Origin: an uncultured Thiotrichaceae bacterium
GTDB lineage: Bacteria > Pseudomonadota > Gammaproteobacteria > SZUA-229
Assembly: GCA_964425515.1 (NCBI GenBank)
Contig: CAYRNH010000003.1
Span: forward strand, 1 to 32,493
Direction: 5' to 3'
DNA: 32,493 bases
Part shown: positions 9,097 through 32,493 of the stretch, piece after piece
Position numbering within the stretch: position 1 is the stretch's first letter
Layout: every line of letters starts with the position of its first letter
Program-made: the position numbers and the translations under genes
Notes under the pieces: generated by a model
The model's input: only the letters and a program-made list of their open reading frames with translations
Told to the model about the DNA's origin: nothing
Database searches by the model: none

Positions 9097-9126
9097 TTGT
9101 CACAATACCCGTCACGATGGTATGTT
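9097..9126 (+). promoter_or_regulatory. Candidate sigma70 promoter of the nine-gene operon
   Basis: TTGTCA (9097-9102), 18 nt, TATGTT (9121-9126), with a TG-n extended -10. AAGGAAAGGG RBS before ATG 9172. Confidence 0.45.
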
Positions 9127-9171
9127 AACTTGTTGATTGTCCGTGCCATTCATATCAAAAGGAAAGGGTAA

Positions 9172-9717
9172 ATGTATAAATATATCGGGCTTTTTCAGAT
9201 CAGGTTATTGCTTTTTGTATTCCTGAGTTCGTGGGCTTTTAGTGCGGTGGCGGCTGAGGAAGTGAGCCGTGACCAGATAAAGGGCCTTGATGAGCAGGTT
9301 CAGGATATCAAAAAAAATGTTCTCGATCTGACTTCCGAGCTATCACGGCTGGAAGAAAAATTACTGTTCCCTTCCAATAGTCAGGTTTCATTGTTTGTCT
9401 CAATCGAAAAAGATGATCATTTTCGACTTGATTCTATCCAGCTCAAACTTGATGAAAAAATTGTTGCTGAGCATCTTTACACCTTTCGCGAACTCGAAGC
9501 GTTACAGAAAGGTGGTGTACAACGTCTATATACCGGCAATATAAAAACCGGTGATCATAAGCTGGTAGTGAGTTTTATCGGCAAGGCACCCGCAGGTGGT
9601 GAATATAAACGTAGCGCAAGTTACACAGTGGTAAAAGATGTCGGCCCAAAATTTGTTGAAATAAAAATCTCAGGTTCCGATGCCGCTGAACAGGATGCGA
9701 AATTCAGGGACTGGTAA
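9172..9717 (+). CDS. Secreted hypothetical protein (signal peptide, coiled coil, beta-rich domain); first gene of Agl-Glt-like operon
   Basis: Signal peptide ending AVA-A, heptad segment (LDEQVQDIKKNVLDLTSELSRLEEKLL), then beta-strand patterns. Stop is 2 nt before the next gene. Confidence 0.85.
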   Translation: MYKYIGLFQIRLLLFVFLSSWAFSAVAAEEVSRDQIKGLDEQVQDIKKNVLDLTSELSRLEEKLLFPSNSQVSLFVSIEKDDHFRLDSIQLKLDEKIVAEHLYTFRELEALQKGGVQRLYTGNIKTGDHKLVVSFIGKAPAGGEYKRSASYTVVKDVGPKFVEIKISGSDAAEQDAKFRDW

Positions 9718-9719
9718 GC

Positions 9720-11732: not shown

Positions 11733-14700
11733 GCACGTACTTCAGTACAGTCGGTCTGGCAAGAGTCTCAGTGATTGTGGCGATGATGGCACTTGCCGCC
11801 TGTGCACATAATAAGGTGCGGGGTACGCTGGCTTCCCTGGCAACCGTAAAACCCGATGTTAAGGACGTAAAAATTGAAGGAAGCCTGGAAAAAGCGCTGC
11901 AGAGTTACCAGCATTTCCTTAAAGAAACACCCGAAACTGCGATGACGCCGGAAGCTATACGACGACTTGCAGATTTGAAAATTGAAAAAGAATATTCGGT
12001 CACCCCTGATTCTGTCGAAACGCCTGCAGTGACCGCCAGTACGGAAGCAAAGGCTTCGACTTCGGTTAATGCGCCAGCGGTAAAGGTTACCGCGCCAGAA
12101 TCGAAGCCTGCAACCGCGAGTACAACTACATCAGGTCCAGCTACATCAGGCCCGGTGACGTCTGCGCAGTCGGGCAAGATGGATGTGCCAGTGGTGCCTG
12201 TGGTGGATCGTAAAAAGGCTGCGGCGGTTACAGATAATAAGAAACAGCAGATCAGCAAGCGGTCGGGTGCGATCGCTGACCTTACAGAATCGGAAAAGTC
12301 CTTCAACGAACGCGCCAGCCAGCAGATAAAACTGCCAGCCGCCAAAAAAGAGAAAGTGAGCCCAGGGGGTAATACGGATGACCTGCAAACAGCCGGTGCA
12401 ATGGAGGCGATAAAGCTGTATCAGGGGCTGCTAAAAAAATACCCATTATATAAGCGTAATGATGAAGTGATGTATCAGCTGTCTCGTGCCTACGAAGACA
12501 CCGGGCAGATCAAAAAAGCGATTAAGACGCTGGATGTCCTGGTGGTGAAGTATCCGAATTCCAGGCATATTGATGAAGCGCAGTTTCGGCGTGCCGAATA
12601 TTTCTTTACCCACAAACATTATATTGATGCGGAAGAGGCTTACCAGGTGGTGCTGAACATGGGGCGCGGATCCGCGTTTTACGAACTGGCGCTGTACAAG
12701 CAGGGCTGGTCATATTTCAAACAGGAACTATATGATGACGCGCTAAAAGATTACATAAAAATGCTCGATCAAAAAGTTCAGGATGGTTATGATCTGAGCA
12801 ATATTAAAAACAAGATCGAGAAGAAACGTATTGATGATACTTATCGTGTGATCAGCCTGAGTTTCTCATATCTGGGTGGTGCGGATTCAATCGAAGATTT
12901 TTTCAAACAGGTGGGTCCTCGCGAATACGAAGCCAATATTTATAGTAACCTGGGTGAGTACTATCTTGAAAAACGTCGCTACAGTGATGCTGCACAAACC
13001 TACAATAGATTTATTCAGCGCAATCCGCTGAGCAAGGAGTCACCCTTATTTAATATTCGCGTGATCGAGATATATCTTAAAGGTGGATTTCCAAAACTGG
13101 TCATCGAAGCAAAGAAAAAGTTTTCCATCACCTATGGGTTAAAGGCAAGCTACTGGCAGTATTATGATATTAAGAAATTCCCGGTTGTACTGGCTTATCT
13201 TAAAACCAATCTTACCGATCTTGCGGTGTACTACCATGCCCTGTTTCAGGATAAACGTCTGTATAAACAAAAGCAGGATAATTATCTTGAAGCGGTTCGC
13301 TGGTATCGCGCGTTTCTTGCCAGTTTTCCAGAAGATGAGCAGGCACCCGTGCTGAATTATCAGCTGGCTGGGCTGATGCTGGAAAACAAGGATTATCGTG
13401 GCGCTGCGCTGGAATACGAGCGCACTGCGTACAATTACCCACCACACAAAAAATCAGCCGAGGCGGGTTATGCGGCAGTGTTTGCTTACCGCCAGTATTT
13501 TAAAGTGGCGCAGGCATCGGACCGCATATTGGTCAGGCGCGAAATTGTGCGTAGTTCACTCAAGTTTGTCGAGACTTTTCCCGATCATAAAAATGCGGCT
13601 GTGGTACTGGCTGCGGCAGCGGATGACCTCTATGCGCTGAAAGATTATCCAATGGCGGTTAAAACGGGTCGCAAACTAATAGAGAAATATCCGAATGCAG
13701 ACCCGAAACTAATACGTTCGGGCTGGCTGGTAGTTGCTCATGCATCCTTTGATCAGGCAAATTATGCCGATGCCGAAAAAGGCTATACACAGGTGCTGGC
13801 AATGACGGCCGCAAATGACAAAAGTCGAAGTGAGCTCATCGAGAACCTGGCTGCTTCGATATATAAGCAGGGAGAGCAGGCGAGGAAACTGGGAAAATAT
13901 CGCGAAGCCGCAAATTTCTTTCTGCGAGTTTCAGTCGTGACACCGACAGCAAAAATACGTTCCACGGCAGAATATGATGCTTCAGCAGCTCTGATTACTT
14001 TAAAGGACTGGCCGGCAGCAGCAAAAGAGCTGGAAGATTTCAGAAAACGCTATCCTGAAAATAAATTACAGCCCGAAATCACCAAAAAGCTGGCGGTGGT
14101 GTACAAGGAAGACGGCAAACCATTGCAGGCGGCGGGTGAGTATGAGCGTATTGTAAGCGAAACAGATAACAAGGAACTGAAGAGAGAGGCATTGCAACAA
14201 TCTGCAGACTTATACGTAACTGCAAAAGCCACAAACGATGCGCTGCGCGTTTACAATCACTTTGTAGAAATGTTCCCGCATCCGATTGAGGATGCTGTTG
14301 AAACACGTAACAAGATGGCAAATATATATAAGGAATCGGGCAACCATACAAAGTATCTACAGCAGTTAACCATTATTGTTGATGCGGACAAGCACGCAGG
14401 TAAGGAACGTACTGATCGTACGCGTTATCTTGCGGCCGAAGCAGCGCTGGTTCTTGCGGAGCCGGTGCTGAAGAGATTTTATGACGTTAAGCTAGTTAAG
14501 CCGTTTAAAAAGAACCTCAGGAAAAAGAACAGCCGCATGAAAGCCGCTATCGACACCTATGGAAAATTGCTCGACTATCAGGTGGGTGATGTGACTGCCG
14601 CAGCGACATACCAACTGGCCGAAATATATTATAACTTTAGTCGATCATTGATGAATTCCGAGAGACCGGACCATCTAAGTGCGCTTGAGCTTGAGCAGTA

Positions 14701-15001
14701 CAATATTATGATTGAGGACCAGGCTTACCCATTCGAAGAAAAAGCCATTTCAGTTCACGAGAAGAACCTGGAGTTGCTCAGTGTGGGGATATATAACGCC
14801 TGGATAGAAAAGAGCCTTGCAAAACTTGCGGTGCTAATGCCCGCGCGCTATGCAAAACCTGAACAGGATAGTTCATATGTTGAAAACCTGGTGCCTGTGA
14901 AGAATAAACAGGCGCCGACGGCGCCAGGTGCAACTCTACCAACTGAAAAGCCAGTCGCCAAACCTGACGCTACGGCTGCAATGAATGGTGATTTGCAATG
15001 A
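11729..15001 (+). CDS. Large TPR lipoprotein (GltD/AgmU-like)
   Basis: 1090 aa. Lipobox LAAC (Cys25), disordered linker, many TPRs (DEVMYQLSRAY, DEAQFRRAEYFF, LALYKQGWSYF), C-terminal EDQAYPFEEKAI segment. ATGA overlap with the upstream gene. Confidence 0.85.
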   Translation: MSTYFSTVGLARVSVIVAMMALAACAHNKVRGTLASLATVKPDVKDVKIEGSLEKALQSYQHFLKETPETAMTPEAIRRLADLKIEKEYSVTPDSVETPAVTASTEAKASTSVNAPAVKVTAPESKPATASTTTSGPATSGPVTSAQSGKMDVPVVPVVDRKKAAAVTDNKKQQISKRSGAIADLTESEKSFNERASQQIKLPAAKKEKVSPGGNTDDLQTAGAMEAIKLYQGLLKKYPLYKRNDEVMYQLSRAYEDTGQIKKAIKTLDVLVVKYPNSRHIDEAQFRRAEYFFTHKHYIDAEEAYQVVLNMGRGSAFYELALYKQGWSYFKQELYDDALKDYIKMLDQKVQDGYDLSNIKNKIEKKRIDDTYRVISLSFSYLGGADSIEDFFKQVGPREYEANIYSNLGEYYLEKRRYSDAAQTYNRFIQRNPLSKESPLFNIRVIEIYLKGGFPKLVIEAKKKFSITYGLKASYWQYYDIKKFPVVLAYLKTNLTDLAVYYHALFQDKRLYKQKQDNYLEAVRWYRAFLASFPEDEQAPVLNYQLAGLMLENKDYRGAALEYERTAYNYPPHKKSAEAGYAAVFAYRQYFKVAQASDRILVRREIVRSSLKFVETFPDHKNAAVVLAAAADDLYALKDYPMAVKTGRKLIEKYPNADPKLIRSGWLVVAHASFDQANYADAEKGYTQVLAMTAANDKSRSELIENLAASIYKQGEQARKLGKYREAANFFLRVSVVTPTAKIRSTAEYDASAALITLKDWPAAAKELEDFRKRYPENKLQPEITKKLAVVYKEDGKPLQAAGEYERIVSETDNKELKREALQQSADLYVTAKATNDALRVYNHFVEMFPHPIEDAVETRNKMANIYKESGNHTKYLQQLTIIVDADKHAGKERTDRTRYLAAEAALVLAEPVLKRFYDVKLVKPFKKNLRKKNSRMKAAIDTYGKLLDYQVGDVTAAATYQLAEIYYNFSRSLMNSERPDHLSALELEQYNIMIEDQAYPFEEKAISVHEKNLELLSVGIYNAWIEKSLAKLAVLMPARYAKPEQDSSYVENLVPVKNKQAPTAPGATLPTEKPVAKPDATAAMNGDLQ

Positions 15002-15594
15002 TGCTATTAAAAGCAAGCACAAGAGTTATGTTGATTATTGCGGCGCTATCATTTTTGCTTGTGGGCTGCGCAATAGCGCCCGAGCAAAAAGCGAGTACAA
15101 CGAAAGAAGAAAATGTAATCGTCGACCCTGATGTGGAGCAACTGTTTGATAAAGCGGTTGTATTGTTGAAACAGAAGGACTACGACAATGCGATTACGTT
15201 GTTAAACACTGTGGTTGAACGCGAACACCGTCTGACAGCACCGTACATTGATCTGGGCATGGCCTATCGTCAGAAAGGTGATAACAAAAAGGCCGAGGCC
15301 AATTTAATGAAGGCGCTTGATATAGACCTGGCGAATCCGGTTGCGAATAATGAGCTGGGGTTGCTTTATCGTAGCCTGGGACGCTTTAAAGATGCAAAAA
15401 AAGCCTATACTAATGCATTGACGCAGCATCCGGATTATTTGCCCGTGATCAGGAATTTGGGTATTTTATGTGATATTTATCTGAATGATCTGGACTGCGC
15501 GTTAGATCAGTATGAGAAATATCAGAAACTAAAGCCGGGAGACAAGGATGTGAAAAACTGGATTGCCGATCTTAAGGGCAGGATGAGGAAGTAG
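14998..15594 (+). CDS. TPR lipoprotein (GltE/AglT-like)
   Basis: Lipobox LVGC (Cys24), about 4 TPRs (DLGMAYRQKG, NELGLLYRSLG, RNLGILCDIYL). ATGA overlap. Confidence 0.85.
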   Translation: MMLLKASTRVMLIIAALSFLLVGCAIAPEQKASTTKEENVIVDPDVEQLFDKAVVLLKQKDYDNAITLLNTVVEREHRLTAPYIDLGMAYRQKGDNKKAEANLMKALDIDLANPVANNELGLLYRSLGRFKDAKKAYTNALTQHPDYLPVIRNLGILCDIYLNDLDCALDQYEKYQKLKPGDKDVKNWIADLKGRMRK

Positions 15595-15598
15595 GGAT

Positions 15599-15868
15599 AT
15601 GTTTAAATTATCGAAAACTTTGATCGTTCTCATGCTGGGCCTGAATTCAGTCGCCTATGCTGCAGACAAAGCCAAAGAGCTCTCCGGTATTTCTATTATT
15701 GGAAATGAGGAAGCGCCTAAGTCACTCTATATCGTCCCCTGGAAAAACTCAGAAGTTGGTGTTGAAACCAGCCTGACAACCGGCCTGCTGGACGAATCTA
15801 ATAAGCTTGTTGATAAAGATGTGTTTATGCGAGAACTTGATTTTTATCGACAGAGCAAGGCGCGATAA
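15599..15868 (+). CDS. Small secreted protein (GltF/CglF-like)
   Basis: 89 aa. Signal peptide ending AYA-A, motif LSGISIIGNEEAPKSLYIVPWK. Lies between the TPR lipoprotein and the motor genes. Confidence 0.75.
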   Translation: MFKLSKTLIVLMLGLNSVAYAADKAKELSGISIIGNEEAPKSLYIVPWKNSEVGVETSLTTGLLDESNKLVDKDVFMRELDFYRQSKAR

Positions 15869-15902
15869 CGTATTTGTTAAAGATAACACGAGGTAAAGCA
15901 AT

Positions 15903-16568
15903 ATGGATACACTTGAAAGTATAGTTAAATTTTTCCAGACCGGTGGGGCGTTTATGTATCCCATCATGCTGGTATTTGTTATCGGTCTTGCGATTGCGAT
16001 CGAACGCTGGATAAAACTCACTATTGTGCGTCGTGATAATCGTCGTGTCTGGACAATGGTGCATCCGGTGCTGGAAGAGGGCGAGTTTGATAAAGCACGT
16101 GACCTGGTTCTTGACGATAAATCTGCTATCGGCGGTTTGTTGACAATGGGACTGGCACGGCAGGGTTCGGTGCGCCGACGCGATGACATCGAAATTGCGA
16201 TGGAAGAAAGTATGATGGAAATTATTCCGCAACTTGAAAAACGTACACCTTATGTTGCGCTGTTTGCCAATATCGCTACTTTGTTAGGTTTGCTTGGAAC
16301 CATTATGGGTCTGATTGAAGCGTTTACCGCAGTTGCAAATGCAGACCCTGCGGAAAAAGCTGATCTGCTCTCTGCCAGTATTGCAGTGGCGATGAATACC
16401 ACGGCTTTTGGTCTGATCGCCGCCATACCATTATTGATTGGACATGCCATGCTGACATCCAAAACAGGCGAAATTATCGATAGCCTGGAAATGGCCTCGG
16501 TTAAAACACTGAACCTGATCGCGGACTTCGCTAAACGTCAGGCTGCGTTGGCGAACAAAAATGGCTAG
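15903..16568 (+). CDS. MotA/TolQ/ExbB proton channel family protein (AglR-like)
   Basis: Three TM segments, GGAFMYPI, ATLLGLLGTIMGLIEAF, AMNTTAFGLIAAIP. GAGGT RBS. Confidence 0.95.
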   Translation: MDTLESIVKFFQTGGAFMYPIMLVFVIGLAIAIERWIKLTIVRRDNRRVWTMVHPVLEEGEFDKARDLVLDDKSAIGGLLTMGLARQGSVRRRDDIEIAMEESMMEIIPQLEKRTPYVALFANIATLLGLLGTIMGLIEAFTAVANADPAEKADLLSASIAVAMNTTAFGLIAAIPLLIGHAMLTSKTGEIIDSLEMASVKTLNLIADFAKRQAALANKNG

Positions 16569-17055
16569 AGGTCACCACTACAAGCGGCCGAAGAAAGAGC
16601 CGCCTGAGCTCAACATCACTACCTTCCTTAATTTGATGGTGGTGCTGGTGCCGTTTTTGCTGATTACTGCCGTGTTTTCGCGACTCACTATTATGGAGCT
16701 GAATTTGCCCACCGGTCAGGGTGCGAGTGTGGCTAATAACAAACCTCAATTTGCAGTTGAGGTTGTCGTTCGCGAAAAAGGTCTGGAGATAAGTAATGGA
16801 AAAGTAATCATTGCGCGTTTTCCGAAAGTCGATGACAAGTACGATTTGCAGACACTGTCTAAATATTTGCTCAAAATTAAATCTCAATATATGAGCAAAA
16901 CGGACGCTACAGTTTTGATGGAGCCTGATATCAATTACAACACCTTAATACGGGTGATGGACGCAGTGCGTGCGGCCGAGGTGATACAGGGTGATAGTCA
17001 TGAGAAGCAGGAGATCGAACTGTTTCCAAATATTTCTATAGGTGACGCACCATGA
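16561..17055 (+). CDS. ExbD/TolR family protein 1 (AglQ/AglS-like; Asn at the conserved Asp site)
   Basis: Basic N-terminus, TM ELNITTFLNLMVVLVPFLL, periplasmic domain with EPDINYNTLIRVMDAVR. 8-nt overlap with the upstream gene. Confidence 0.9.
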   Translation: MARGHHYKRPKKEPPELNITTFLNLMVVLVPFLLITAVFSRLTIMELNLPTGQGASVANNKPQFAVEVVVREKGLEISNGKVIIARFPKVDDKYDLQTLSKYLLKIKSQYMSKTDATVLMEPDINYNTLIRVMDAVRAAEVIQGDSHEKQEIELFPNISIGDAP

Positions 17056-17555
17056 AGCAGAATCGACGGATGAAACGAATGGAGCGTAGCCATAAAAGAA
17101 GACCAGCTGGTTTGCATCTGGTTTCGTTGATGGACGTGTTCACAATACTTGTGTTTTTCCTGCTGGTAAATTCATCTTCCAGCGATGTGCTCGAGCCACC
17201 GAAGAGTATCAAGTTGCCAGACTCTATTGTGGATACCAAGCCTCGTGAAACCATTGTTGTACTGGTGACGCCGGAAAATGTGCTGGTTCAGGGGACTGTT
17301 GTGGCATCCACGCAGGACGTTATTAATTCAAAAAAATCTGTGATACCGGCAATTCGTGACAGGCTGATTGAGCAAAAAACAAAGGTCATCGGTTTTAAAA
17401 CAAAAACAGTGGCTGAATCTAAGGAGATTACTGTGCTTGCAGATCGCAGTCTTCCTTTCAAACTTCTTAAAAAAGTGATGTCAAGCTGCACCAGTGCTGG
17501 TTATAGCAAGATTTCGCTAGCAGTTATCCAGAAAGCTTCCCAGCAGAAGAAATAA
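17052..17555 (+). CDS. ExbD/TolR family protein 2 (AglQ/AglS-like; Asp28 present)
   Basis: TM LVSLMDVFTILVFFLL, IKLPDS, LADRSLPFKLLKKVMSSCTSAGYSKISLAV. ATGA overlap. Confidence 0.93.
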   Translation: MKQNRRMKRMERSHKRRPAGLHLVSLMDVFTILVFFLLVNSSSSDVLEPPKSIKLPDSIVDTKPRETIVVLVTPENVLVQGTVVASTQDVINSKKSVIPAIRDRLIEQKTKVIGFKTKTVAESKEITVLADRSLPFKLLKKVMSSCTSAGYSKISLAVIQKASQQKK

Positions 17556-17565
17556 CGGTGATTTT

Positions 17566-18930
17566 GTGAGTGATAATATTTCAGATCGTCAGAATGATAT
17601 TAATCGTAAGCTCGAGCAGGCTTATGATGATCTGATTGGTGTCGAAAACGAGCAAAAGCGCGTCGAGGCTGAATTAAAAGCCTTGCTCACCGAACGCAGT
17701 CGCTATTCTTTATTGAGTGAGATCAGCGACCACCTTGATCAACTTTATAAGCAGGGTGGCGCCAGCCTGTTCTGGGGTGAAGACTCCGATCCTGAAAAAA
17801 TGCGTCAGCATACACAACGCCTGCGTACCCGCATAGCGAATTACGACAACAAGGTACAGGAGCTGCAGTCACGCCAGTCAACAGGTGAATCCGAAGCACA
17901 AAGTCTGGCAGCACGCGTCAATGTTCTCAATGAAGAGAGTGCGGTGCTGCAGGAAGTGGCTGAAGAAGTTAAATACGAATTTGTCATTGAACGTGAAATG
18001 ACGCAGCTGCCTTTCCGGCCCATGGTCATGCCATGGCAGAGTGAGGGCGAAGATGATAAACGATTTAGACGCATCGTTGCTATTTGTTTGCTCGTCGGCC
18101 TGTTGCTGGGTTATTTGATTCCGTTGTGGAATATTCCGATTCCGGACAAGGTCGAGCAGATCAAGGTTCCAGAGCGTATGGCGCAGTTGATGCTGGAAAG
18201 AAAACCGCCGCCACCTCCGCCACCACCTCAGCCGGTTAAAAAGACACAGGAAGAGACGCCAAACAATAAGCATCCGAAAAAGGCGACTGCGCCCAAAACC
18301 GACAAAGCCAGGGTCGCGCGCAAGCGAGCCGAAAGAGCGGGCCTGATGGCGTTCAAAAAAGATTTTTCAGAACTTATGAATACCGGTTCGGTTGATAAGA
18401 AACTGGGTGCAAAAGCCAGCATCAGCAGCCTGGGTAAAACGGCGAGACATGCGACACGTTCACTGGTGACTGCAGAAGCGGGCAGTTCCAGCAGCGGTAT
18501 TAACACCGCTTCGCTAAGTCGCGATGTGGGCGGAGCAGGTACCGGCATGAAAGGTGTTGCTTTCCAGCGCGTTGAAAGTGCTATTGGCACTGACTTTGCC
18601 GGCGATGATCGACCATTGAGTGGTGGCCCAGGCCCCTCGCGTACCGATGAAGAAATTCAGATCGTGTTCGACCGTTATAAAGCAGTGCTGTACCGTATCT
18701 ATAATCGCGAATTACGTACTAATCCGACCTTGCAGGGCAAGATGGTATTACGTTTGACGATTGAACCTGATGGTAGCGTTTCGGCGTGTAAGATCGATTC
18801 CAGTGACATGCATTCACCGGTTCTTGAGAAGCAGATAGTTGCACGCGTTTTGAGATTTAATTTTGGACCGAAGAAGGGTGTTCCTGCAGTTACCATTTTA
18901 TACCCGATAGATTTTCTGCCGGCTTCCTGA
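17566..18930 (+). CDS. TonB-like energy transducer with AgmX/PglI-type C-terminal domain (GltG-like)
   Basis: GTG start, ~140-aa N-terminal coiled coil, single TM (IVAICLLVGLLLGYLIPLW), poly-Pro run, Gly/Ser-rich linker, TonB-C-like end (RTDEEIQIVFD...YNRELRTNPTLQGKMVLRLTIEPDGSV...YPIDFLP). Confidence 0.88.
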   Translation: MSDNISDRQNDINRKLEQAYDDLIGVENEQKRVEAELKALLTERSRYSLLSEISDHLDQLYKQGGASLFWGEDSDPEKMRQHTQRLRTRIANYDNKVQELQSRQSTGESEAQSLAARVNVLNEESAVLQEVAEEVKYEFVIEREMTQLPFRPMVMPWQSEGEDDKRFRRIVAICLLVGLLLGYLIPLWNIPIPDKVEQIKVPERMAQLMLERKPPPPPPPPQPVKKTQEETPNNKHPKKATAPKTDKARVARKRAERAGLMAFKKDFSELMNTGSVDKKLGAKASISSLGKTARHATRSLVTAEAGSSSSGINTASLSRDVGGAGTGMKGVAFQRVESAIGTDFAGDDRPLSGGPGPSRTDEEIQIVFDRYKAVLYRIYNRELRTNPTLQGKMVLRLTIEPDGSVSACKIDSSDMHSPVLEKQIVARVLRFNFGPKKGVPAVTILYPIDFLPAS

Positions 18931-19094
18931 TTGTGCATTGTGCCGATACATTGTTTCGGCAGGAAGCGAGTTTGCATCATTGATGTAATGGGCAGGAGTT
19001 CACAGGGCCGTGATTGAAGCAGTACGTGGATGTTTTCGCGTCACTAATTGATACAAAAAAATAATTATATTTCAGGCTTCAGGGTTTTAGCTGG

Positions 19095-22000
19095 ATGAAG
19101 GGTGGTGTTGTAAACAACCGATGGGCGAAACTACTCGCTGGCGTAATACTCGCTGGCGCCGGTGCTTTGCTGTCTGTTGATAGCGCATTTGCGGCCGCCA
19201 GCCTGACACTGTCCAGTAGCTTTACTTCAGCCGACCCGGCGCGTGCCAGTGCCTACATGGATTCCGGCGGTACCTGGAACGGCAGCAGTGAAGTCACCAA
19301 TACCACTGGTGATCGCTTCGTACTGAGCGTTCAAAATACGGGAACCGTGCCGATAGTCGATGAGGCTTACGATCTTGCAATCAATGTGACCGTGCCGGCG
19401 CATTTTCGTTTACCGACATCATCTTCGCCAGTCACAGTCGCTGAAACTTCAGGTACACCAGGTTGTGCTGTGATCGGAAGTCTGAGTGCAACACAGGCGG
19501 GCGGTCCGGGAACCGATGTTGCATTCAATATACCCGCTAACACCAGTATTCTACCGGGTTGTCGTTACAGTTTTGATTTCGGCCTGACTACCGACGATGT
19601 TCCACCATCAGCCAACTCGGGCAGTTATAACATTATCTATAATGTTAACTACGACCTGGTAGCCGGTGATGCATCGACCATGCAAACCAGCAGCACGAGC
19701 CACAGTGTCGAAGTGCGCAAGGGCAGCGTTAGCCTGGTCAAAACAGCAAACACACCGGTTGCGGGTAATGGTGATACGGTCGACTTCACTGTGTCTTTGC
19801 TCAATTCTGGCAAGGGCGGCATTTTTGATGTGGTACTCAGCGACACGCTCAGCCCTGATCTGACCAACCTGGTACTCACCGCGCCCGCAACACCGCCGGG
19901 TGTTGCCGGGCCGGGCGCCAATCAATACACATATAAATATATAGCGCCGGGTCAGCAGATCGATGTTGACACAAAAGCCACCGTATCCGTCGATCCCAAT
20001 GCATTGACCTGTCCGAATTTGCGTAATGATGCCAGTGCAGTAGAGCGTCTGGGCACCACCGGAACATTTTTTGATACGGTTCCATTTGATCTGCAAAATC
20101 CATTCATCGATTACACGCCACCCAACATCACGATTCCGTACGGAGCTGCGGGTGTTGCTGTGACCGTGCCGGTACAGAACACCGGCACCGGGGTGGCAAA
20201 AAATATTTCGCTGACTGCGGCGAACCTGGCGGTATATAGCATTGTGGTAGACACCACGGCTTCACCCAACTGGTCATATGCGGGTGGCGGAGTGTTCAAT
20301 TACAGCGGTACGCTGGCAGCAGGCGCGTCCGCGAACCTCACGTTCAATGTCAGCACCACCTCCTGTCCGGCGCCTGCGGATCAGAATATTACCTGGGTGC
20401 CCGGATATAAAAATGCCTGCGGTACCGATTTCTATCCACCGATACGATTTTCTTCGACCACTTTAAATAATGTGCCAGATGTGAATGTCACCAAAACGGT
20501 GTCAGCGTCGACATTCAATGTGGGATCGCCTGGCTTTTATACACTGACTTTGAACGGTACCAATACCGCCGGCCTGCCTGGTAATAGTGTCCCGAATAAT
20601 ACGGATTTTTCAGTCACCGATACGCTGCCGAACGGAATCACAGGCGCGGTGATCAATTCGATTCCTGCGGGTACCGTAGTGCTGGTCAATGGTTCGCCTT
20701 ATGCCGCCGGATCAGCGATTGCAGACAGTGCCACGATTACCTGGCGCGGGGATCGTGCTGATCTTTCACCGCTTCCTAGTTTGCGAATTGATTTTACTGC
20801 GGGCTCAACCGGTGTTTGTCCTGTCGGTCAGACGATCAGCAATACCGCCAGCCTGAGCTACCCCTCCTGTAGCATTAGTAATAATGATAATGCCGGTTTC
20901 ATTCTGAATGAAAATCCTGCGGGCGGTGCAATCACCAATATTGCTGTGGGTGGAGACGGTAATTTCCAGGCCGGCGCCAAAGACACCGATGGTGTAGCCA
21001 ACACCCAGCCGCGTGAAGGCGAGCACATTCCTTTTACACTGTCGTACAGTTTTCCTTCTGGTTTTGCTGGTACCTGGTCGGGTACCCGCTTTACCGCTGA
21101 TTTACGTAGCAACATCGGCACGGGTGTGCCACTGGTGCTGACCAATAACCGTAACAGTGTTCATCTTAAGATTACCCGCATCAGTGACGGCGCTGTGGTT
21201 TGCGATGCTAACCTGAATCCATTACTGGGCGATTTCACCGGCGGTGATGGTACCGGGCCGTTAGTGATCACAAACTTTGGCTCCCTGTCGCCAGCAGGCT
21301 GTAATGCTCTGCCAGCGAACATGGCCGATCATGATATGCAGATTACCTATGCGGCAACTTCGCCCGAAGGTAATCTCGACAGTAACAACAATCCGACCAA
21401 TGCTAATAACATTGGCAATTATCTGGAGAACACCACACTGACGGTGAACGCCGGGCCAACCAGCTGCCTTGGTAACACCGATTTTGTACAGGCCGCTAAC
21501 GTTAATATCGAACGTGCCGTGCTGGGTGTCAGCGCAACACTTAATAATGGTAACCCGGTGTCTGTGTGTTCGGTGGTACCTGCTCGTATCGATGTCGCCG
21601 GGCCGGCAGCCAATACCAATAGCGATAATATTCAGCTGCAATTTAACGATAGCAATTTTGAATTTGTTAAAGCAGATGGAAGTCCGGGTAATCCTACAAC
21701 GGATCTTGGTTATTCGGGTTCTCTGGCGTCATTGGGAATGGTGGGTTCACGCTCAGGCAATGATGTCCTGATGACAGGCACACCCAACACAACTAATCTG
21801 ACTGCTGATGGCAGCGTCAGTTTTAATGTGCGTCTGCGCGACACCACGGTGCCCGGTACCATGGCGGTGCAGCTGGGGTATGACAGTAATCATACTTCGC
21901 CCGATGGTGCACCATTAACAGACTCAGACCGCGATTATGTTTTAAATATTAATGGCACACCTCTAGATATATTGAGTGGCCAGCTGAAGATGGAATTTTT

Positions 22001-25000
22001 TCCAGCGGACGTTATTCTCAAAGACTCAACCAACTACACGTTCCGTGCACAGATTACCAATGTGGGCACCGGTACTGCGGTAGGCGCGAAGTACCGCCTG
22101 ACATTACCGGCCGGAATGAAGTTTGAATCTGCGGATGTCACGCCGACCACGTTGGGTCCGTTTGATTATTCCGGCCAGACCATTGAATGGGCCCTGGGTG
22201 ATCTGGCGGCAGGTGCCTCGTCGAATATCAATATAACCACCAGCATTAATCAGACCACCTGTTTTCAGAACCCGACCGAAAAAATTACTTCGGAAACAGA
22301 ATGGGGTTGCGGCAGCCCGATCATCACCACCGAGACCAAACCCGGACTGGTTCTGGCGCCGCATCAGCTGACGCTGACGCACGATTCAAACAACAGCTTC
22401 TGTAAACTGTGTAACGAAGGTGAGGTGCGTCTGTTCGTTAACAATACCGGTAGCGTATTACTCACCAATGTCGATGTTACCGAAAACCTGATGGCCTCAG
22501 GTTTGACCTACGTACCCAATTCCACCACGTATTATGTCGATGGTGTTGCGGCGGCTGCACCACTGGCCGAGCCTACGGTGAGTGGCGCTAACTCAGAATT
22601 GATCAACTGGAACACGTCGCAGATTCCGGAGCTCGCAAATCTGTATAGCGCGTTCAGTGCAGGCGCAGGCAAACCGCAGCAAATAGAAATTCGTTTTCGC
22701 GTTAAACGCAACACCGCAGGTGGTTTTAACAATGAAGGTTTGATATCAGCCAATAGAAATATTCAGGCGACAGCAAGTTATGGCCTGTTCTGCGGACCGC
22801 CGCCGCAGACCGCGAGCAGTGCTTTGTTTGAATTACCCATCGATCAGCCGGTGCCGACAGTGACCAAGCAGGCAAGAAACGTTGATGCTAATCAGCCACC
22901 CTCTGCTTATGCGAATACGGTGTACGGTGGTAGTGCAGACAATGTGATCTGGCGAGTGCAGGTGACGAACAACGGCCCTGACAGCCGCGCCGATCTTGAA
23001 GCGTTGATTTTAAATGACAGCATCGACAACATCGGTGGCAACAATTTTTTGATCAATGAAGTCTGTGATAGCGAAGCGAATGCAACGCTGGCAGCCCAGG
23101 GCGCCTCACCAGGATCACCTGACTGTATTTCTGTTGGCTCGACTGCATCAACCAGCTTCAGTGTGAATGATCCATTCGGCAATCCAAACAATGATGAGAC
23201 GACAAGTTTCATCGATGTGCTCAAGGGCGGCCAAACGTATATTTATTTTGTCGGCAAGATTCAGAATACCTGTACCAATCATACCAACAGTGTTGATATT
23301 GCCTGGGGTTGTCAGTCCGATCCACCGGATGGCGGCATTACCACGCCCGCGACCAGTGGTGGAGTGACGCCTGCGTACAGTAACGCAGATACTGCTGCTC
23401 TGAGTACCGCGGTGAATCCTGCCGGCGTGATCATCAGCCAGACGGTGACAGGAAGGAATCCGGCGCAACCGCTGGGCGCAACCGGTATCGTCACGGTCAC
23501 GATTCGTAATAATTCGGGCGGCAGCGTGCGCGGTATCACGCTGGACGATGTACTGCCCGCAGGGTATGCGCTGGACCAGACATTGATGACCGCTGTTGAT
23601 ACCCCGGCGTTTGGTGCCTACACCGGGATGATCGATACCGTCAATCTGACGAATCCACAGGCGGCTGCAGAAAACAATACCAGCCCATCTTTTACGCTGA
23701 CCAGTTCCGGTGGTACTGCACCGCAAAATAATCTGCTTCGTCACGGCGATGTGCTGACCATTACGCTTGGTATCGTCAAGAAAAATGGTTTTGATATTGT
23801 CGCCAATCCCGAAGTGCGGGTAGAAAATACCGGTGACGGTACCGACCCTTCGGTAGCTACGCCGCTGAATAATAAAGCAACGGTTGTGTTTGAAAATACC
23901 TGTGGCAGTGCTTTCCCTGCAGTGGTGAATAATCTTTCGGTATCACCCGCACCCGAAGATCTGGATATCAATATTAATCCGACGAATGCGGATCTGATAT
24001 ATATATTGAGTGACCCAACTGCGTCTCTGAGCCTGGATGTGCAGCTGACCAATAATGGTGGCAATGATGCCAGTCATTATTTTACTTATGTGACGGTTGG
24101 TAGTGGACTCAAGGTACTGACTCCTGTGCCGACTGGTTGTGCTGTCACCAGTAATCCACCAGCGCATGCGGTATGGGCGCCCGCATTGCCGGCAACGGCA
24201 ACAGTGTATCAATGTACTAAGACGGACCCGCTACCGCCTGGCTCAACCGACAGTTTTGTTTTTAATGTACAAAAGCAGAACACGGGTGCTGATTTAACCT
24301 TCCGTGCCGATGTGGTGGGCGAGATTACCTTAAGCGATGGCACGCCGCTGACATATCCGACACCCGACACGACCATTGCCAATACCGCAAACAATTATTC
24401 ACTGGATTCGATCCGTGCGCGCCTGATCGGTTTTAATCTTACCAAGGTGATTCAGGGAAACTGCACCGAAAACAATCCCGCGCCAGTCAATAATAATCGA
24501 GTGCAAATTGGTGAGGACTGCACCTATCGCATGGAAGCTGGCTGGTTTGGTTTTGCAACGCCGGGTTTTGGCAGCATTCAAATCAAGAATGCGGTAATCA
24601 CCGATACCATTCCAGTGGGTCAGGGTTTTATTTCACAGAACACCAGCAATAGTAGTGCTGGCATCACAAATATAACAAGCACAGCATCGGGTCTGACGCC
24701 ACCGGCCTATAGTCCGTCTATTAGCTGGCAGTTTGATCCATTTGCCGGTGATGAGACCTTCAGTGTGGACCTGGTTACGCGCACGCTCAATGATCCACTG
24801 AACAGTTCGGCTTCGCCTAATGTGCACGGTGCATACAGGGCAGACACGGTCAATGCGAGCTTTGACGTTGATTTTGGTGGCACCACGAAGTCGTTTGGAT
24901 CGACCACGCCCGGCTATCCACCGATATCTGTGCGCAGGGCTCCTGTCAGAGTCATCGAACCACATCTGATTATTACCAAGGAAGTCTGCGATGAAACGAT

Positions 25001-28000
25001 TCATGGTGTTGGGCCTGCGTGTACCGCCTTCGTACCCCTGGTCAATGAAGGCGATACCAATGATAACTATGTTTACCGGGTAAGCATTCTCAATGAGGCT
25101 ACATCCGGCGGCTACCAGCGCGCGCCTGCGTACGATGTTGATATCACCGATGTGCTTGATAGCAGTGACCTGCTCACACTGGATCCCAGCTATCTGATCT
25201 ATGAAGTCGATAATACGAATAATGGTACTGTCGATGCCTCAGGTTCCTTATCTCCAATGGTTATCACCGATAACACCCCCAACAATGGAACGCCCGGTGT
25301 TCTGAGTATTTTATCGAGTACAAATCCGGTATTGCAGAAAATCGACCCCGGCCAGAAGGTGATGCTTTATTACCGCGCCAATCCGGATGATGCTGCGGCA
25401 CCGGGACAGCAGCTGAAAAATTCTGTAACAGCTCACTACGACACCTTGCCGGGCGTGTCGGGCAACCAGAATGCACCACAGGAAGCCAGTGGTACTGCCG
25501 GTGGTGCGCGTGAATACACCACCACGCCACAAAGTGCCACCATAGAAATCACTTCACTGACAGTGCCGCCCAAATCCAAAGGCATACTGGCGCTTTCAAA
25601 TACACCGTTGGGTGGTGTGGCACCGTTTGTTGGGCCGCAGAACGCAGCGGTCGGTGAAGAAATTCAATACCAGCTGCAGGTCGATATGCCCGTGGCGAAC
25701 CTGAATACTTTTGTTATTCGTGATGTGCTGCCTGTTGGCCTTAAATGTATTGAAGCGGAAACCATCAATCTGGATGCAGCACCTTATAGCACCGCAGGTT
25801 TTTCACCGGGTGGTACGTTCGTACCCACCTGTACTAATAATGGAACCAACGATGTTGTGGAATGGGATTTTGGCGATCAGAAACTGACCAATGGCCCCAC
25901 CTTTAACTTTACTGCGAAATTTATCGCACGCGTCGAAAATATCGCCAGTAACCGCGATGGCGTTCTACTTCGCAACGGCGGTACCGGTGCGGGCAGCACC
26001 CTGGCAACGCTGAGTTACAAAGATGCCGGTGGTAATCCGGTAACGGTGAATTTAGGGCCCGCTGACGTGACTGTGAGCGAACCCAAAATCGTACTGAATA
26101 AAGTCTATGGTGTGACGAGCGCAGATGCAGATGATGAACTGACAGTCACAGTCACCGCCACAAATACAGGAACATTACCTGCGTACAATGTACGCGTGTT
26201 TGATGATCTGGCAGCAGTCACGGACCTGACCTATGTTTCAGGCAGTAACTCGGCCAATGTGACCCAGGATTTGAGTCTGGGCGCTAATCGTCCGGTATTT
26301 ACTTTAAATCCGGTCGCGCCGATTGCAGCAGGCGCGAATGTCAGTTTCACTTTTAAAGTAAAGGCAAGTTCGACCGTACAACCGCTCGAAGTGCTGGATA
26401 ATACGGTGCAGGCGGCATGGACCTCTTTGCCGGGTTCTGGCACGGCATTGAATTCAGGCGGCAGCATCGGTGCAGATGGCAGCGCGACCGGTATGCGCAC
26501 CGGGGCGATTCCTAATGCGGGTGATACGCTGAATAATTACGAAGCGACCTTCACCAATAACGCATTACTTGTTCCATCAGTCAGTGTTACCAAAACCGAT
26601 TTAAATCCAGCAGTGGTGCCCACCATTGGTGAACGTAAAAAGTTCGAACTCGATATCGCGATTCCAGAAGGCGTTACCAATAATCTTAAAATCAGCGACG
26701 ATCTGTTTGCTGCATCCGGATTGCCGCCAGCCGCCGCTTATGTTCTGGAAGACAGTGCTGGCTATAACATCAGCTACAGTTTCTCGGGCATAGCCAGCAT
26801 CAACGGTGCTGCACCTGCAAAAACTGCATTCACCGCATTGCCGACTAACGGTGCTAGCGGAGTGATCACCTGGAACATTGGTAAAGTGATCACGAATACA
26901 GAAAACGATGCGGTATCGAATGCGATCAACCCGTCGATACATATTACCTATTACGCGCGCATTAATAACGACACCAGCACCCATGCGGGCGATGCCATGC
27001 TCAATTCGGCGAGCGCTACATTTACCAGTGGCGAAACCGGTGCAACCACAACCACAACACCGGTGGCCGCGCCGCAGGAGACCGTGAAGGAACCTGCGCT
27101 GACAGTCACCAAAACATTTAACAATGTAACACCGGGAAAAAATCCGACCGACCTGCCCGACGGCGGTGACACGATTGAATATGTGTTAACGCTAAACAAT
27201 ACCGGCACCAGCACTGCATTCGATACCAATATTGTCGACACGCTACCCGCCGCTTTGCAGCTCGATACCAGTTTTACCCCGACTGCAACCATCGGCGGCA
27301 CGCCCGTGTCTGGCTTCGTTTCCACGCCAGACGGTTCACCTGGTGGGCCATTGATCTGGGGTCGTGGAAAAGCCGTGCCGGACGGAAGTCTGGATATACC
27401 CGCTGGGCAGTCGCTGATACTGACCTATCGAGTGACTTTGCAGAACAACGTGCTGGCTGATCTTGCGATCAACAATAGTGTGCTGGTTGACTGGACTTCG
27501 CTCAATGGCAGCTCGCCAGATGAGCGCACCGGTGCAGGTTGCCCGACCATCACTGCGCCCAATGATTACTGCAGCGGGCCGATAACCGCGGTGATGAATG
27601 TCAGTGATAACAACAGCATTGTCAAAACTCGATTGACGGATACTTCACCGACATTGACTGCACCGAATGATGTGCGCATTGGCGACATCGTAGATTACGA
27701 ACTGCACGTTAATATCCAGGAAGGCACCAGCCCTGATGTAAAAGTGACTGACACCCTGCCCAAAGGCCTCGCCTTTGAAGGCGTGTTGAGTGTTAACGGT
27801 GATACTACGGCACCGTATTCTCAGTCAGGGCCGTTTAGCTATAGTGATATCGCTGCCCCCACCGTTTCGGGTAATCCCGCCAGCGGGCCGAGTACCGTGA
27901 CCTGGAATCTGGGAACCATAGTCAACGCGGCCGACAACAATACCGCGAACAATGATTTTGTCATTGTGTATCGCGCGCGTGTGCTCAATCTTGTGCAGTT

Positions 28001-31000
28001 GCAGCAAAATAGCATCAGCCTGACCAACACCGCAAACCTGGATTACACCACGGCCAACGGTGCGGCAACGACCAGAACAGGTAGTGAAACGGTCACCATA
28101 CTGCAGCCGAATTTAAGCGTCACTAAAACGGCCGCACCCGCAGGCGGTGACAATCTTATCGATGCCGGTGAACTGATCGATTACACCGTTGATGTCACTA
28201 ACAATGGTACCGCGCCTGCGTATGATCTGGAGCTCAGCGATATTATTCCGGTGGGTTTACGCAATGGCGCGGCGACCATCACCATGGTCAGTACCGAGCT
28301 GCCGGTGGGAACAACAGTGACCAGTCTGCCACCGGTGTACGATGCGGTGACCGGCAATGCCATCTGGAATTTTGATACCGGCACGGCAGACGCCTACACC
28401 ATTCAGCCAGGCGAAACATTACGTATTGTCTATCGTGTGCAGGCCGACCCTACACTTGGCCCTGGTCTCACCATGACCAACTCGGCTCAGGCCAGACGTT
28501 ATTATTCATTCGACAATAATGCGGTTCCGGTTGCGGGGACAAGCACCGGTGTGCGTGAAATATACGGGCCCAGCAATACCGCGACAGCAACACTGCAGAC
28601 GCCGGCAGCAGGACCACTGGCGATACAGAATCCGGCGAGCCTGAATGCTTCTATCGGTGTGCCGTTTACCTATCGCATCACTGTGCCGGCGACGCCGCAA
28701 AATACTGCGCTGAACGATGTGCGTATTCTCGATAATTTATCTACGTCGGCAGCGGATATGGTGTTTGTCAGCGTGAGCAAAGTTTCCGGATCTGGATCAT
28801 GGACACCGGTGAATGTGGGGACTTCGAAAAATATTATTATTCAGGATTCGGGTGCCGGCGGTATCGATATCCCTGCCAACCAGCAGGTCGTGATTGATCT
28901 CACTGTGCAGCTGCGTAATCAACCGGTGAACGTAGCTGGTCTGACCTTTAACACGACTGCCAGTTATACCTTTAATAAGGTCAACGGCGATAACACCACA
29001 CAGGGCGTGACTGTGCCCGTTACCACCGCACCCGATATGGTGGTGGTCGAGCCGGATCTGCATTTACGTAAATTCGGGCCATCACCTGCGATTGTCCAGT
29101 TTGGTAATCCGATTCCATATCGACTCGAAGTTGAAAATGTCGGCACCGGCCCGGCCTACGACATTACCGTGCGCGATCACTTACCAAGTGTGCCCGATGC
29201 CGGCCCGCCACAAACCGGCGGCACCTGTAATACCGCGCCCGATAATTTTGTAGTGCAGATCACCAATGATTCGCTGGTGGTGTTGCGCACGCTGGTGAAG
29301 AACGTGGATTACACCGAAACGCACACAGCGGCGCCGACCTGTGAGCTGGTGATTAAAACCACTCCATCCTATACCTCGCCGAATGCGGTGCTGGGTGCAG
29401 ATGAAAGACTGGTGATCAACTACGATGCGTATCTTGATGTGAATACGCTCGATGGGGTTTCGCTTACCAACATCGCGGGCGTTACCGAATGGTTCAGTGC
29501 GGATACCGCAGGTGCAGGCGCTACCGGCGAAACCCGTACTTATACCAAAACTATTACCGATGGCACGGTGGGTACTTTTGACCATCAGGATGCGTACACC
29601 GTGCAGACCCAGTCGCCGGTACTGGTGATTCAGAAAACAGTGGTGAATCTGACATCGGGACAGAACCCGGGCTCGAATGCAAAACCGGGCGATACACTGC
29701 GTTACACGATCACGATCAAAAACATCGGCCCGGTAGGTATTTCAAGTTTCAGTCTCACCGATGAGCCGGACCGGCTGACAACGCCGCCGGGTATTTTTGT
29801 TCCCGGCTCGATGACAAATATTGTGGTGCCTGCGGGCGCTGACAATACCAATACGAATATCAACGGCGGTGCGCACGGTGCGGGCAGACTCGATGTGCGC
29901 AACATGTCACTGGATGCCGCGGGCGGTGCAAACGATACCCGCACGATCAGTTTTGATGTCACCCTGGAACCGGTATTGCCCAGCGGCACGATTGCGCGTA
30001 ACCAGGCGCTGGTGAGCACGCCCAATTTCAGTAACCTGCAATCAGACGATCCTAATATTAACGGTGCCGACAATCCTCTGGTGTTCGGCGATGAAGATCC
30101 AACGCAGACGCTGATCGGTTCGGTACCGACCTTCCGCCTGCAGAAAACATCAAAAGATCTGACCGGTGATCCGAATGTGCTGCGTCAGGGCGACACGCTG
30201 CAATACACCATCACTGCGAAAAACATTGGTATCGAAAACGCAGTGAACGTTATGTTGCGCGATCAGGTGCCGGCCAACAGCAGCTATGTGACAGGCAGTA
30301 CCACATTGAACGGAGTGGCGATTGCCGACCCGGCTGCAGGCATATCGCCTTTGCAAAACGGCATTCTGATCCACGCGCCCGAAGACAGTACCGCAGGCAA
30401 TATGCGCGCAGACAGCAGTGCGACCACTGCGAACGTTGCCACCATCACCTTTAGCGTGGTGGTGGATTCGAATGTGGTCAATGGCACGGTGATATCCAAC
30501 CAGGCCTTTGTCACCGGGCAGGGCGTGGGTAGTGGACCGTTCCCGACCCAGCAGTCGGATGATCCGAGTACCGATGTGTTTGGCGATCCAACGCAGAATA
30601 TCGTTGGCAACCTGCCGATACTGAATGTGCAGAAAACGGTGGCGCTGCTGAATGATGCAGGTACCGCGGGCCAGGTCGATACCGGTGATACTCTGCGTTA
30701 CACGTTTAAAATCAGTAATGCCGGTGCGATACCCGGCACCGGTGTGGTGTTGCGCGACAGCATCCCTGCGAACACAAGTTATATCGCCAACAGCGTTACT
30801 CTGAATGGCAACGCCATCGCCGATGCGTCGCCCGGGGTTTCGCCATTGATCGCAGGCATCGATATAAATTCTTCCGATGTGACGCCACCATTGCCAACAC
30901 CGGGCAATGGCAAGGTTACCGCCGGACACTCGGCCACGGTCACCATCGATGTCACCGTGACCGGTGCGCCCGGACAGCTGATTAGCAACCAGGGCACCTT

Positions 31001-32493: not shown

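Follow-up and report, generated by a model that had tools for sequence, protein, structure and literature searches.

A giant DUF11/CLIPPER fibre gene and the gene of its predicted OmpA-barrel partner behind a Glt-type motor cluster in an uncultured Thiotrichaceae bacterium

The stretch of DNA analysed here, which we call the window, is the complete contig CAYRNH010000003.1 (C3; 32,493 nucleotides [nt]) of an uncultured Thiotrichaceae bacterium of the Gammaproteobacteria (GenBank GCA_964425515.1), whose genome assembly consists of 306 contigs with a total of 2.45 Mb and is 84.7% complete. An ATG-started frame on the forward strand (19095..32492) runs for 4,466 codons without a stop in both the translation and a listing of open reading frames (ORFs) with open ends, and it encodes a giant modular protein that we refer to as the fibre; the 13.4-kb stop-free frame reported by the first-pass annotation, which was made from the sequence alone, is therefore confirmed by computational translation. 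Because the window is a whole contig, it is the assembly, and no stop codon, that truncates the fibre gene here. Contig C269 (2,782 nt) is the sole contig among the 306 that starts with the last 55 nt of the window (k = 31, 41, and 55). The fibre frame continues in frame 1 of C269 through 313 codons, of which 18 also lie in the window, and stops at C269:940-942, so that extension of the contig to the stop codon adds 295 codons, resulting in a joined fibre protein of 4,761 aa. A 324-kb contig from a relative (L004) is collinear with this join, the tail of C3 ending at L004:10054 and C269:1-2782 corresponding to L004:10001-12782 with 89% nt identity and no gaps. Upstream of the fibre gene lies a cluster of motor genes, and downstream, on C269, a gene for an OmpA-domain protein that we call the partner. 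The features of the fibre gene are as follows:

19095..32493, forward strand: giant fibre gene, residues 1-4466 of ~4,761, the remainder on C269
19095..19193, forward strand: Sec-type signal peptide, residues 1-33, with an A-F-A cleavage motif (read from the translation)
19269..22871, forward strand: N-terminal region with five DUF11-like domains and paired cysteines (tiled Pfam searches and self-profile)
22872..24458, forward strand: ~530 aa, residues 1260-1788, without a recognised family (no Pfam match at E ≤ 1 and no self-profile match)
24459..31529, forward strand: 14 DUF11/CLIPPER-type domains, residues 1789-4145, including TIGR04226 isopeptide-D2-type units (Pfam, NCBIfam, and self-profile)
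31530..31835, forward strand: SdrD_B (CnaB/transthyretin-like) domain, residues 4146-4247 (PF17210, 33.5 bits versus a cut-off of 29.7, in a tile)
31857..32390, forward strand: second prealbumin/SdrD-B-like domain with two cysteine pairs (ESM Atlas 0.96; CarboxypepD_reg 17.5 bits, below cut-off)
32379..32493, forward strand: start of the conserved C-terminal module (CLIPPER-like domain, CnaB-like domain, and probable OmpA-like tail), which continues at C269:1-939

To describe the domain architecture, we combined Pfam and NCBIfam models with an iterative self-profile seeded on the three clearest repeats. Pfam searches matched DUF11 (PF01345) with 171.1 bits (cut-off 24.6) in eight stretches, together with DUF7619, DUF7507, and DUF7927, and NCBIfam searches matched the TIGR01451 DUF11 repeat with 211.1 bits (cut-off 24) in 11 stretches and the TIGR04226 isopeptide-forming D2 domain with 178.9 bits (cut-off 30) in four stretches; SdrD_B exceeded its cut-off in an isolated tile and scored 17.5 bits on the whole protein. 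The self-profile identified 20 DUF11-like domains covering 3,112 of the 4,761 aa, of which five lie in residues 59-1259 (59-208, 209-330, 460-615, 961-1087, and 1089-1259), ten in 1789-3495, four in 3514-4145, and one at 4429-4562. A first regular expression for the domain cores, which gave eight sites, had been abandoned.

Most of the parse made in the first-pass annotation is recovered by these searches. The N-terminus has, by inspection, the positively charged start, hydrophobic core, and A-F-A motif of the Sec-type signal peptide that had been proposed; DUF11, isopeptide D2, and SdrD_B models, to which the annotation had pointed, are all matched; and the ten alternating A/B domains (~24430-29615), four related domains (~29620-31500), SdrD-B-like domain (~31510-31860), and final DUF11-like domain (from ~32385) correspond to ten self-profile domains at nt ~24459-29579, the four at residues 3514-4145, the PF17210 match, and a domain that starts at residue 4429 (nt 32379), respectively. 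The second transthyretin-like domain stands on its top ESM Atlas match, in which the 178 aa after SdrD_B share 208 of 256 features with an SdrD-B/prealbumin-like cluster, and not on Pfam, where the match is subthreshold. The count of ~11 Cys-rich Ig-like domains proposed for ~19195-24420 is not reproduced; five are recognised there and ~1,000 aa match nothing. The view of the repeats as old and diverged, with no tandem identity at the DNA level, agrees with our results: a Tandem Repeats Finder search of the fibre DNA was nearly empty, the sole array being one of 35 nt in the signal-peptide region, a BLAST search of the whole fibre against itself returned the identity match alone, and tiled BLAST revealed mostly very weak self-similarity.

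The fibre contains 41 cysteines, mostly in close pairs, and a crude isopeptide motif scan found candidate Lys and Asn residues at 13 of 19 sites; judged from such signatures, some of the domains appear to be of the isopeptide-forming type, with putative bonds. DUF11 has recently been renamed CLIPPER; crystallography identified it as a stalk domain with an isopeptide bond in a Gram-negative fibrillar adhesin, and DUF7507 and DUF7619 are CLIPPER relatives (Protein Sci 2025, PMC12617251). With ~20 Ig-like domains and three CnaB/transthyretin-like domains, the fibre is a further DUF11/CLIPPER fibrillar adhesin. Its N-terminal 900 aa share 36% identity with an orthologue from the same family and match nothing elsewhere; as the C-terminal module is conserved, the passenger varies and the end stays the same.

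A stop-free frame of this size in a fragmented, incomplete assembly might be a chimera or a decaying pseudogene, and in the closest relative (L004:1-10942, 89% nt identity to the window) the fibre gene is indeed spread over at least eight frames, with 122 alignment gaps relative to the window. We nevertheless consider this explanation hardly credible. A search for in-frame stops and frameshifts found none in the 4,761 codons, and Logan contigs from four independent salt-marsh metagenome runs, which cover 28-30 of the 30 bins of 19000-32493 at 95% identity or more, show no insertions, deletions, or joints over this interval. Synonymous third-position changes account for 32 of the 40 variant sites tallied (155 further sites lie outside this tally), and intact orthologues of 2,818 aa and 5,022 aa are present in two other genomes (G077 and G383, respectively). 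The lack of indels in four assemblies together with the synonymous excess is indicative of a selected coding frame rather than a chance ORF or a chimera, and the fibre frame is a real, selected gene. Because the copy in the window and those in the four other assemblies are intact, the breaks in L004 probably reflect homopolymer errors in a long-read assembly rather than decay. Among 24 sequencing runs listed, there was no RNA run carrying the locus.

A search with the last 313 aa of the fibre gave 83 relatives with 37-96% identity, of which 80 loci were kept, and these are distributed among Gamma-, Beta-, and Alphaproteobacteria, Desulfuromonadales, and one metagenome-assembled genome of the Acidobacteriota. 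We checked 52 of the module loci, excluded three (L020, L067, and L081) that have stops inside the match, and found that the host ORF stops within 18 codons past the module in 48 of the remaining 49. A profile of the module identified 2,185 proteins at E ≤ 1e-30 among 1.84 billion cluster representatives; in nearly all of the 150 best matches the module is at the extreme C-terminus, and the host proteins range from ~0.5 to 5.4 thousand residues. An AlphaFold2 model of the module (49-row alignment; pLDDT 88.5) has three domains: a CLIPPER-like sandwich (residues 1-105, pLDDT ~95), a CnaB/SdrD-B-like sandwich (residues 112-215), and a tail, comprising the last ~100 aa of the fibre, that is predicted to fold as beta-alpha-beta-alpha-beta. 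The first domain matches the solved CLIPPER domain 9ifr (Z 8.6, root-mean-square deviation [rmsd] 2.7, 97 residues aligned), and the second matches SdrD (Z 12.6) and CnaB2 (Z 9.8); the two beta-sandwiches filled both fold searches. The Ig-like folds expected from the first-pass annotation are thus predicted here, for the last DUF11-like domain alone of the 20. The tail, which has no Pfam match to the OmpA_C-like domain PF00691, is probably a small, cut-down OmpA-like domain.

The partner gene starts at C269:939, overlapping the stop codon of the fibre gene. In the window genome it is split between C269 and C161, with residues 615-816 (~600 nt) unassembled; the operon is thus spread over three contigs or more. 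The complete orthologue in L004, which is 95% identical over the shared part, has 1,712 aa and consists of a signal peptide, three OmpA domains, and 1,150 aa without a Pfam family; in the window genome's own copy, OmpA (PF00691) is matched with 91.9 bits (cut-off 27.2) in three stretches. PDB relatives include Rv0899, TssL, and PomB. The middle and barrel regions of the partner are encoded directly downstream of the module in 73 of the 80 loci, and of the other seven, five run into a contig edge and two give partial matches. The number of OmpA domains varies from zero to three among loci. At least 3,608 clusters belong to the partner family at E ≤ 1e-10 among 8,000 scored, and the relatives are publicly named "OmpA family protein," "flagellar motor protein MotB," or hypothetical. 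In an AlphaFold2 model (62 rows; pLDDT 76.8, predicted template-modelling score 0.65), two beta-sandwich domains are followed by ~40 long antiparallel strands in residues 259-1150 (~890 residues). Foldseek and VIA-align searches with this model returned large outer-membrane barrels alone, matched loosely (LptD, BtuB, SlpA, FimD, PapC, and SprA), with scores of Z 14.3 for FimD, Z 12.0 for PapC, and Z 10.3 over 438 residues for SprA; no specific barrel family stood out in either search, and the Pfam search revealed no Omp85/POTRA family in the partner. The C-terminus has a conserved G-x-F-x-N-x-x-G-K-hydrophobic end.

In three cases, fibre and partner are fused into one polypeptide. In L082:3968-14381, the module continues in frame into the partner's middle domain through a clean junction without a signal peptide or OmpA domain; P0268 (3,228 aa) has the module at 1740-2050 and, after it, partner residues 536-1712; and in P0204 (5,031 aa), the module at 3045-3350 is followed by the partner from residue 54 with all three OmpA domains kept. 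The partner's signal peptide and OmpA domains are thus deleted at the junction in two of the three fusions. These fusions argue that fibre and partner act as one unit and that the end of the module and the N-terminal domains of the partner share one compartment, which would be the periplasm because OmpA domains bind peptidoglycan. They also bear on another view of the locus, namely an ordinary adhesin, exported by a type I, type V, or general pathway, that happens to lie next to an unrelated OmpA-family tether. The public labels of the partner relatives would suit such a tether, and proteins with OmpA domains are common neighbours, but in addition to the fused forms the adjacency in 73 of 80 loci across phyla and the overlapping start and stop codons speak against an accidental neighbour. 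Moreover, searches of the fibre found no two-partner secretion (TPS) domain, autotransporter beta-domain, or RTX family, those of the partner found no Omp85/POTRA, and there are no genes for an ABC transporter or membrane-fusion protein (MFP) beside the fibre gene. We therefore regard this view as very unlikely.

Eight genes on the same strand precede the fibre gene (9172-18930):

9172..9717, forward strand: 181-aa secreted coiled-coil protein, the "extra" core gene (likewise heads the cluster in G383, with 63% identity, in G077, with 51%, and in G103)
9720..11732, forward strand: 670-aa tetratricopeptide repeat (TPR) protein, candidate GltC/E-class periplasmic scaffold (TPR families; syntenic in G383 and G077)
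11729..15001, forward strand: 1,090-aa TPR lipoprotein-like protein, candidate GltD class (TPR_6, YfiO, and YbgF-type repeats)
14998..15594, forward strand: 198-aa TPR lipoprotein-like protein (TPR families; GltE, at 32 bits, and Tgl matches below cut-off)
15903..16568, forward strand: ExbB/TolQ/AglR-type proton channel (PF01618, 87.8 bits)
16561..17055, forward strand: ExbD/TolR-type protein 1, AglQ/S class (PF02472, 55.8 bits)
17052..17555, forward strand: ExbD/TolR-type protein 2 (PF02472, 50.7 bits)
17566..18930, forward strand: TonB-like force transducer of 454 aa whose C-terminal domain is of the GltG/AgmX type (NF033768, 66.6 bits; TonB_C, 26.5 bits)

This content of one TolQ-like gene, two TolR-like genes, three TPR genes, one TonB-like gene, and one extra gene occurs in an order common to 14 other genomes. 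This composition matches the Agl-Glt core complex "of unknown function" composed of aglR, aglQ, aglS, gltD, gltE, gltG, gltC, and one extra gene that has been described from Gammaproteobacteria, one betaproteobacterium, Geobacter, and Fibrobacter (Luciano et al. 2011, PMC3169522). The 181-aa protein is without a Pfam or NCBIfam match and would correspond to the "additional gene" of that complex (PMC3169522), the 1,090-aa TPR protein is conserved in all 14 core clusters inspected, and the TPR proteins may be counterparts of GltC, GltD, and GltE on the basis of their repeats. The TonB-like protein exceeds the cut-off of 40 for NF033768 (AgmX/PglI, GltG-type); its score of 43.3 bits with the GltG equivalog model, which has a cut-off of 650, means that it is not a GltG orthologue in NCBI's sense. 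GltG-type TonB-like proteins occur in a short form of ~310-360 aa and a long form of 450-530 aa that, like the protein here, carries a coiled-coil extension at its N-terminus, and the long form is not limited to fibre-bearing clusters (G103, G437, G100, G356, and G304 compared with others).

To determine whether motor cluster and fibre cassette belong together, we examined their linkage in other genomes. A GltG-like gene lies directly upstream of the fibre gene, with a gap that equals the fibre length, in 15 genomes including that of the window (G001 and G002, both Microbulbifer, G006-G011, G013, G029, G383, G077, G346, and G290); linkage is probable in G012 and untestable in G028 and G172 because of contig ends, and none of these three is counted among the 15. 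In G383 and G077, all eight core genes are found in the same order as in the window. Among the 3xOmpA-type loci, linkage is certain in ten and probable in one of the 11 that are testable, and a maximum likelihood tree of 49 modules places all 15 rows of this type, including four untestable ones, in one clade with support of 100/99. This clade spans Thiohalophilaceae, Thiotrichaceae, Microbulbiferaceae, Thiohalomonadaceae, Acidiferrobacteraceae, and the family of the window genome, module identity within the linked loci falls to ~60%, and the fibre and partner pair forms the tail of a ten-gene block in the window genome and in the clade. The TonB-like gene and the fibre gene are separated by a spacer of 164 nt. 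It contains no terminator-like site, and Rfam families were found neither at gathering score in the whole window nor at E ≤ 0.1 in 8750-19200.

Taken together, we favour, with some confidence, a model in which a Sec-exported fibre of ~4,761 residues is coupled through its C-terminal module to the barrel partner, which would anchor it and probably also export it, and is possibly energised by the motor. Fibre and partner would both reach the periplasm through Sec, the module would stay there docked to the partner, and the partner would be pinned to peptidoglycan by its OmpA domains. The fibre may then pass through, or be held by, the wide barrel of the partner, and being so held by a barrel pinned to the cell wall would leave the variable stalk displayed outside as an adhesin. 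Ushers and SprA pass folded domains, and a lumen of the partner's size could pass folded, disulfide-bonded Ig domains. Export, tensioning, or movement of the fibre may draw on proton-motive energy provided by the Glt-type motor. In Myxococcus, the C-terminal domain of GltG binds GltD, and GltD and GltC reach an outer-membrane platform with the adhesin CglB (PMC11761067, PMC9946355); by analogy, the core here could act on barrel and fibre, a tentative suggestion. A stronger version, in which the fibre, the predicted ~40-strand peptidoglycan-pinned barrel, and the Glt-type motor are one machine, with ExbB/ExbD and the GltG-like protein acting via the TPR scaffold on barrel or module, seems to us doubtful; such a machine may export, tension, retract, or move the giant adhesin.

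Several points weigh against the favoured model of a barrel-coupled, possibly motor-driven fibre. Gene, domain content, conserved pairing, fused forms, and synteny are observed; topology, surface exposure, export through the barrel, adhesion, and motor coupling are steps that we infer. About 1,000 aa of the fibre (residues 331-459, 616-960, and 1260-1788) match neither Pfam, searched in 160-aa tiles at E ≤ 1, nor the self-profile. The similarity of the tail to the OmpA domains of the partner is weak (hhalign 59.7%, E 8.9e-5, 42 columns), its matches to PDB profiles are subthreshold (E 0.4-1.2), and its Atlas matches reach 0.86-0.87. The single closed barrel is a reading of the model, drawn from DSSP strands and fold matches that have TM-scores of 0.13-0.20 and high rmsd. 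The spacer upstream of the fibre gene is AT-rich, so this gene may have its own promoter. Finally, the motor link is facultative: among 400 sampled genomes of the class, 18 have a full-length module and 74 a GltG-type domain, and the two genes are adjacent in five, perhaps six; in all 12 further core clusters examined, there is no fibre or barrel within ~14 kb downstream; and in 40 of 50 module genomes searched, including Thiobacillus, Desulfuromonadales, and Rhizobiales, no GltG-type domain scores above cut-off.

Given this distribution, the cassette may work alone, its place behind the Glt-type motor being an inherited gene order without functional coupling, and we regard this as quite possible. 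Most lineages have the cassette without the core and most genomes the core without the cassette, the 164-nt spacer divides the two units, and the adjacency maps to a single clade and may therefore reflect a single historical event. Against independence, the order has been kept without exception in the testable 3xOmpA-type loci (ten certain and one probable) and in G383, G077, G346, and G290, across at least five named families and down to module identities of ~60%; the two units share a strand, and no terminator-like site separates them; and the homologous core of Myxococcus feeds force to an adhesin-bearing outer-membrane platform (PMC11761067, PMC9946355). The genes upstream of the fibre in two cassettes that lack the core (G196 and G331) reveal no common pattern. 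In G196, a gene for a GldG-like ABC_transp_aux protein (L091:2215-3582, reverse strand; PF09822, 103 bits) lies there, a family that is linked to gliding in Bacteroidota, and the association may be coincidental; in G331, the upstream gene encodes a divergent VWA protein.

The same envelope parts could also be arranged differently, with the fibre remaining periplasmic or below the outer membrane, where it would form a lattice that is stabilised by disulfides and isopeptide bonds, is tied to peptidoglycan and barrel, and strengthens the envelope rather than acting as an adhesin. The ends through which coupling would occur are all placed in the periplasm on our model (the OmpA-like tail, the partner's OmpA domains, and a fusion junction that crosses no membrane), the 41 cysteines are mostly in close pairs, and the DUF11 protein OmcB of Chlamydia is placed in the periplasm within a cross-linked envelope complex. 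However, the N-terminal part of the fibre is hypervariable between relatives, a pattern typical of exposed passengers, it is difficult to account for a barrel region of ~890 residues that is neither crossed nor plugged by anything, and DUF11/CLIPPER stalks have been described in surface fibrillar adhesins (PMC12617251). We therefore consider a periplasmic lattice improbable and retain the model of a displayed stalk.

Taken alone, the fibre gene adds one more giant DUF11/CLIPPER fibrillar adhesin, and most of the interest comes from its barrel and motor context. In thousands of Gram-negative genomes, such fibres are accompanied by a dedicated outer-membrane barrel protein that is very large and anchored to the cell wall, a pairing that has no name. 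Should export or anchoring of the fibre be the job of this barrel, it would be a widespread, unnamed autotransporter-like route with a barrel far larger than those of type V systems. If fibre, barrel, and motor should prove to be one machine, it would constitute a new secretion or anchoring route for folded Ig-domain fibres, assign a concrete job to the Agl-Glt core of Proteobacteria that do not glide, the function of which has been an open question since 2011, and suggest that adhesin handling preceded gliding. Because cultured carriers that are harmless exist, such as Microbulbifer variabilis and M. yueqingensis, the role of the core complex is directly testable by genetics.

Three further genes of the window lie apart from these clusters. 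Along its whole length, a 114-aa protein encoded at 1029-1373 (forward strand) matches the HopJ type III effector family (PF08888, 160 bits), and no type III secretion genes are found near it in the window. The ORF at 1429-2289 (reverse strand; 286 aa, true start uncertain) has a long, Q/N/S-rich N-terminal part with a transmembrane-like stretch and ends in an HSP20/alpha-crystallin domain. At 2338-4431 (reverse strand), a full-length EF-G-type GTPase of 697 aa with all five domains is encoded outside a ribosomal operon context and is likely a second EF-G paralogue.

In the open-access literature, the supplementary neighbour lists of Luciano et al. lying outside this scope, we found no description of the fibre-barrel pairing, the module, or the link to the Glt core. 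We compared the locus with systems that share parts of it. As in type Va and Vb secretion, an N-terminal passenger is combined with a C-terminal or separate outer-membrane barrel, the two parts occur both separately and fused, the passenger preceding the barrel, and the passenger is variable and the anchor conserved. Unlike type V systems, the barrel here has ~890 residues and ~40 strands in the model versus 12 or 16 strands, OmpA and beta-sandwich domains precede the barrel, and a folded three-domain module lies between passenger and barrel. Pfam searches (E ≤ 0.01 or 0.001) found the 12-strand type Va autotransporter beta-domain in neither fibre nor partner, and likewise neither a type Vb TPS domain in the fibre nor Omp85/POTRA in the partner. 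Of type I features, no RTX (LapA-like) or ABC/MFP families were found in the fibre or its neighbours, and the fibre has a Sec-type signal.

The best structural matches of the partner barrel, FimD and PapC, are chaperone-usher proteins, and in ushers, folded Ig-like subunits cross a wide barrel that has periplasmic beta-sandwich domains at its flanks. The rmsd of these matches is 12-19 Å, however, the fibre is one polypeptide and not a polymer of subunits, the partner has OmpA domains, and no usher or chaperone Pfam family is present in the partner or the window neighbours. The SprB/type IX secretion system (T9SS) of Flavobacterium also combines a giant repetitive surface adhesin with a very large barrel, SprA (36 strands), and an ExbBD-like proton-driven motor, but it belongs to a different phylum and uses other motor proteins, the fibre has no T9SS C-terminal domain, and the two systems share no demonstrated sequence relationship.

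The fibre itself is closest to the CLIPPER adhesins, with which it shares a signal peptide, a tandem DUF11/DUF7507/DUF7619 stalk, isopeptide-type signatures, frequent disulfides, and SdrD_B; these adhesins are described with a stalk and generic sorting domains, and the available part of that report does not describe this module, the OmpA-barrel partner, or a motor (PMC12617251). The motor cluster is closest to the Agl-Glt gliding machinery of Myxococcus xanthus and its ancestral core complex, which, as described from Gammaproteobacteria, likewise has eight clustered genes of this composition (PMC3169522), and the Myxococcus core connects to an outer-membrane platform with an adhesin (PMC11761067, PMC9946355). 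GltA/B/H/K, CglB, GltF/I/J, and an FHA domain were not seen in the window, and no genome-wide search for them was made. To our knowledge, gliding has not been reported for the bacteria studied here, and in contrast to the Myxococcus system, the outer-membrane part of this one would be a single giant barrel combined with a giant fibre.

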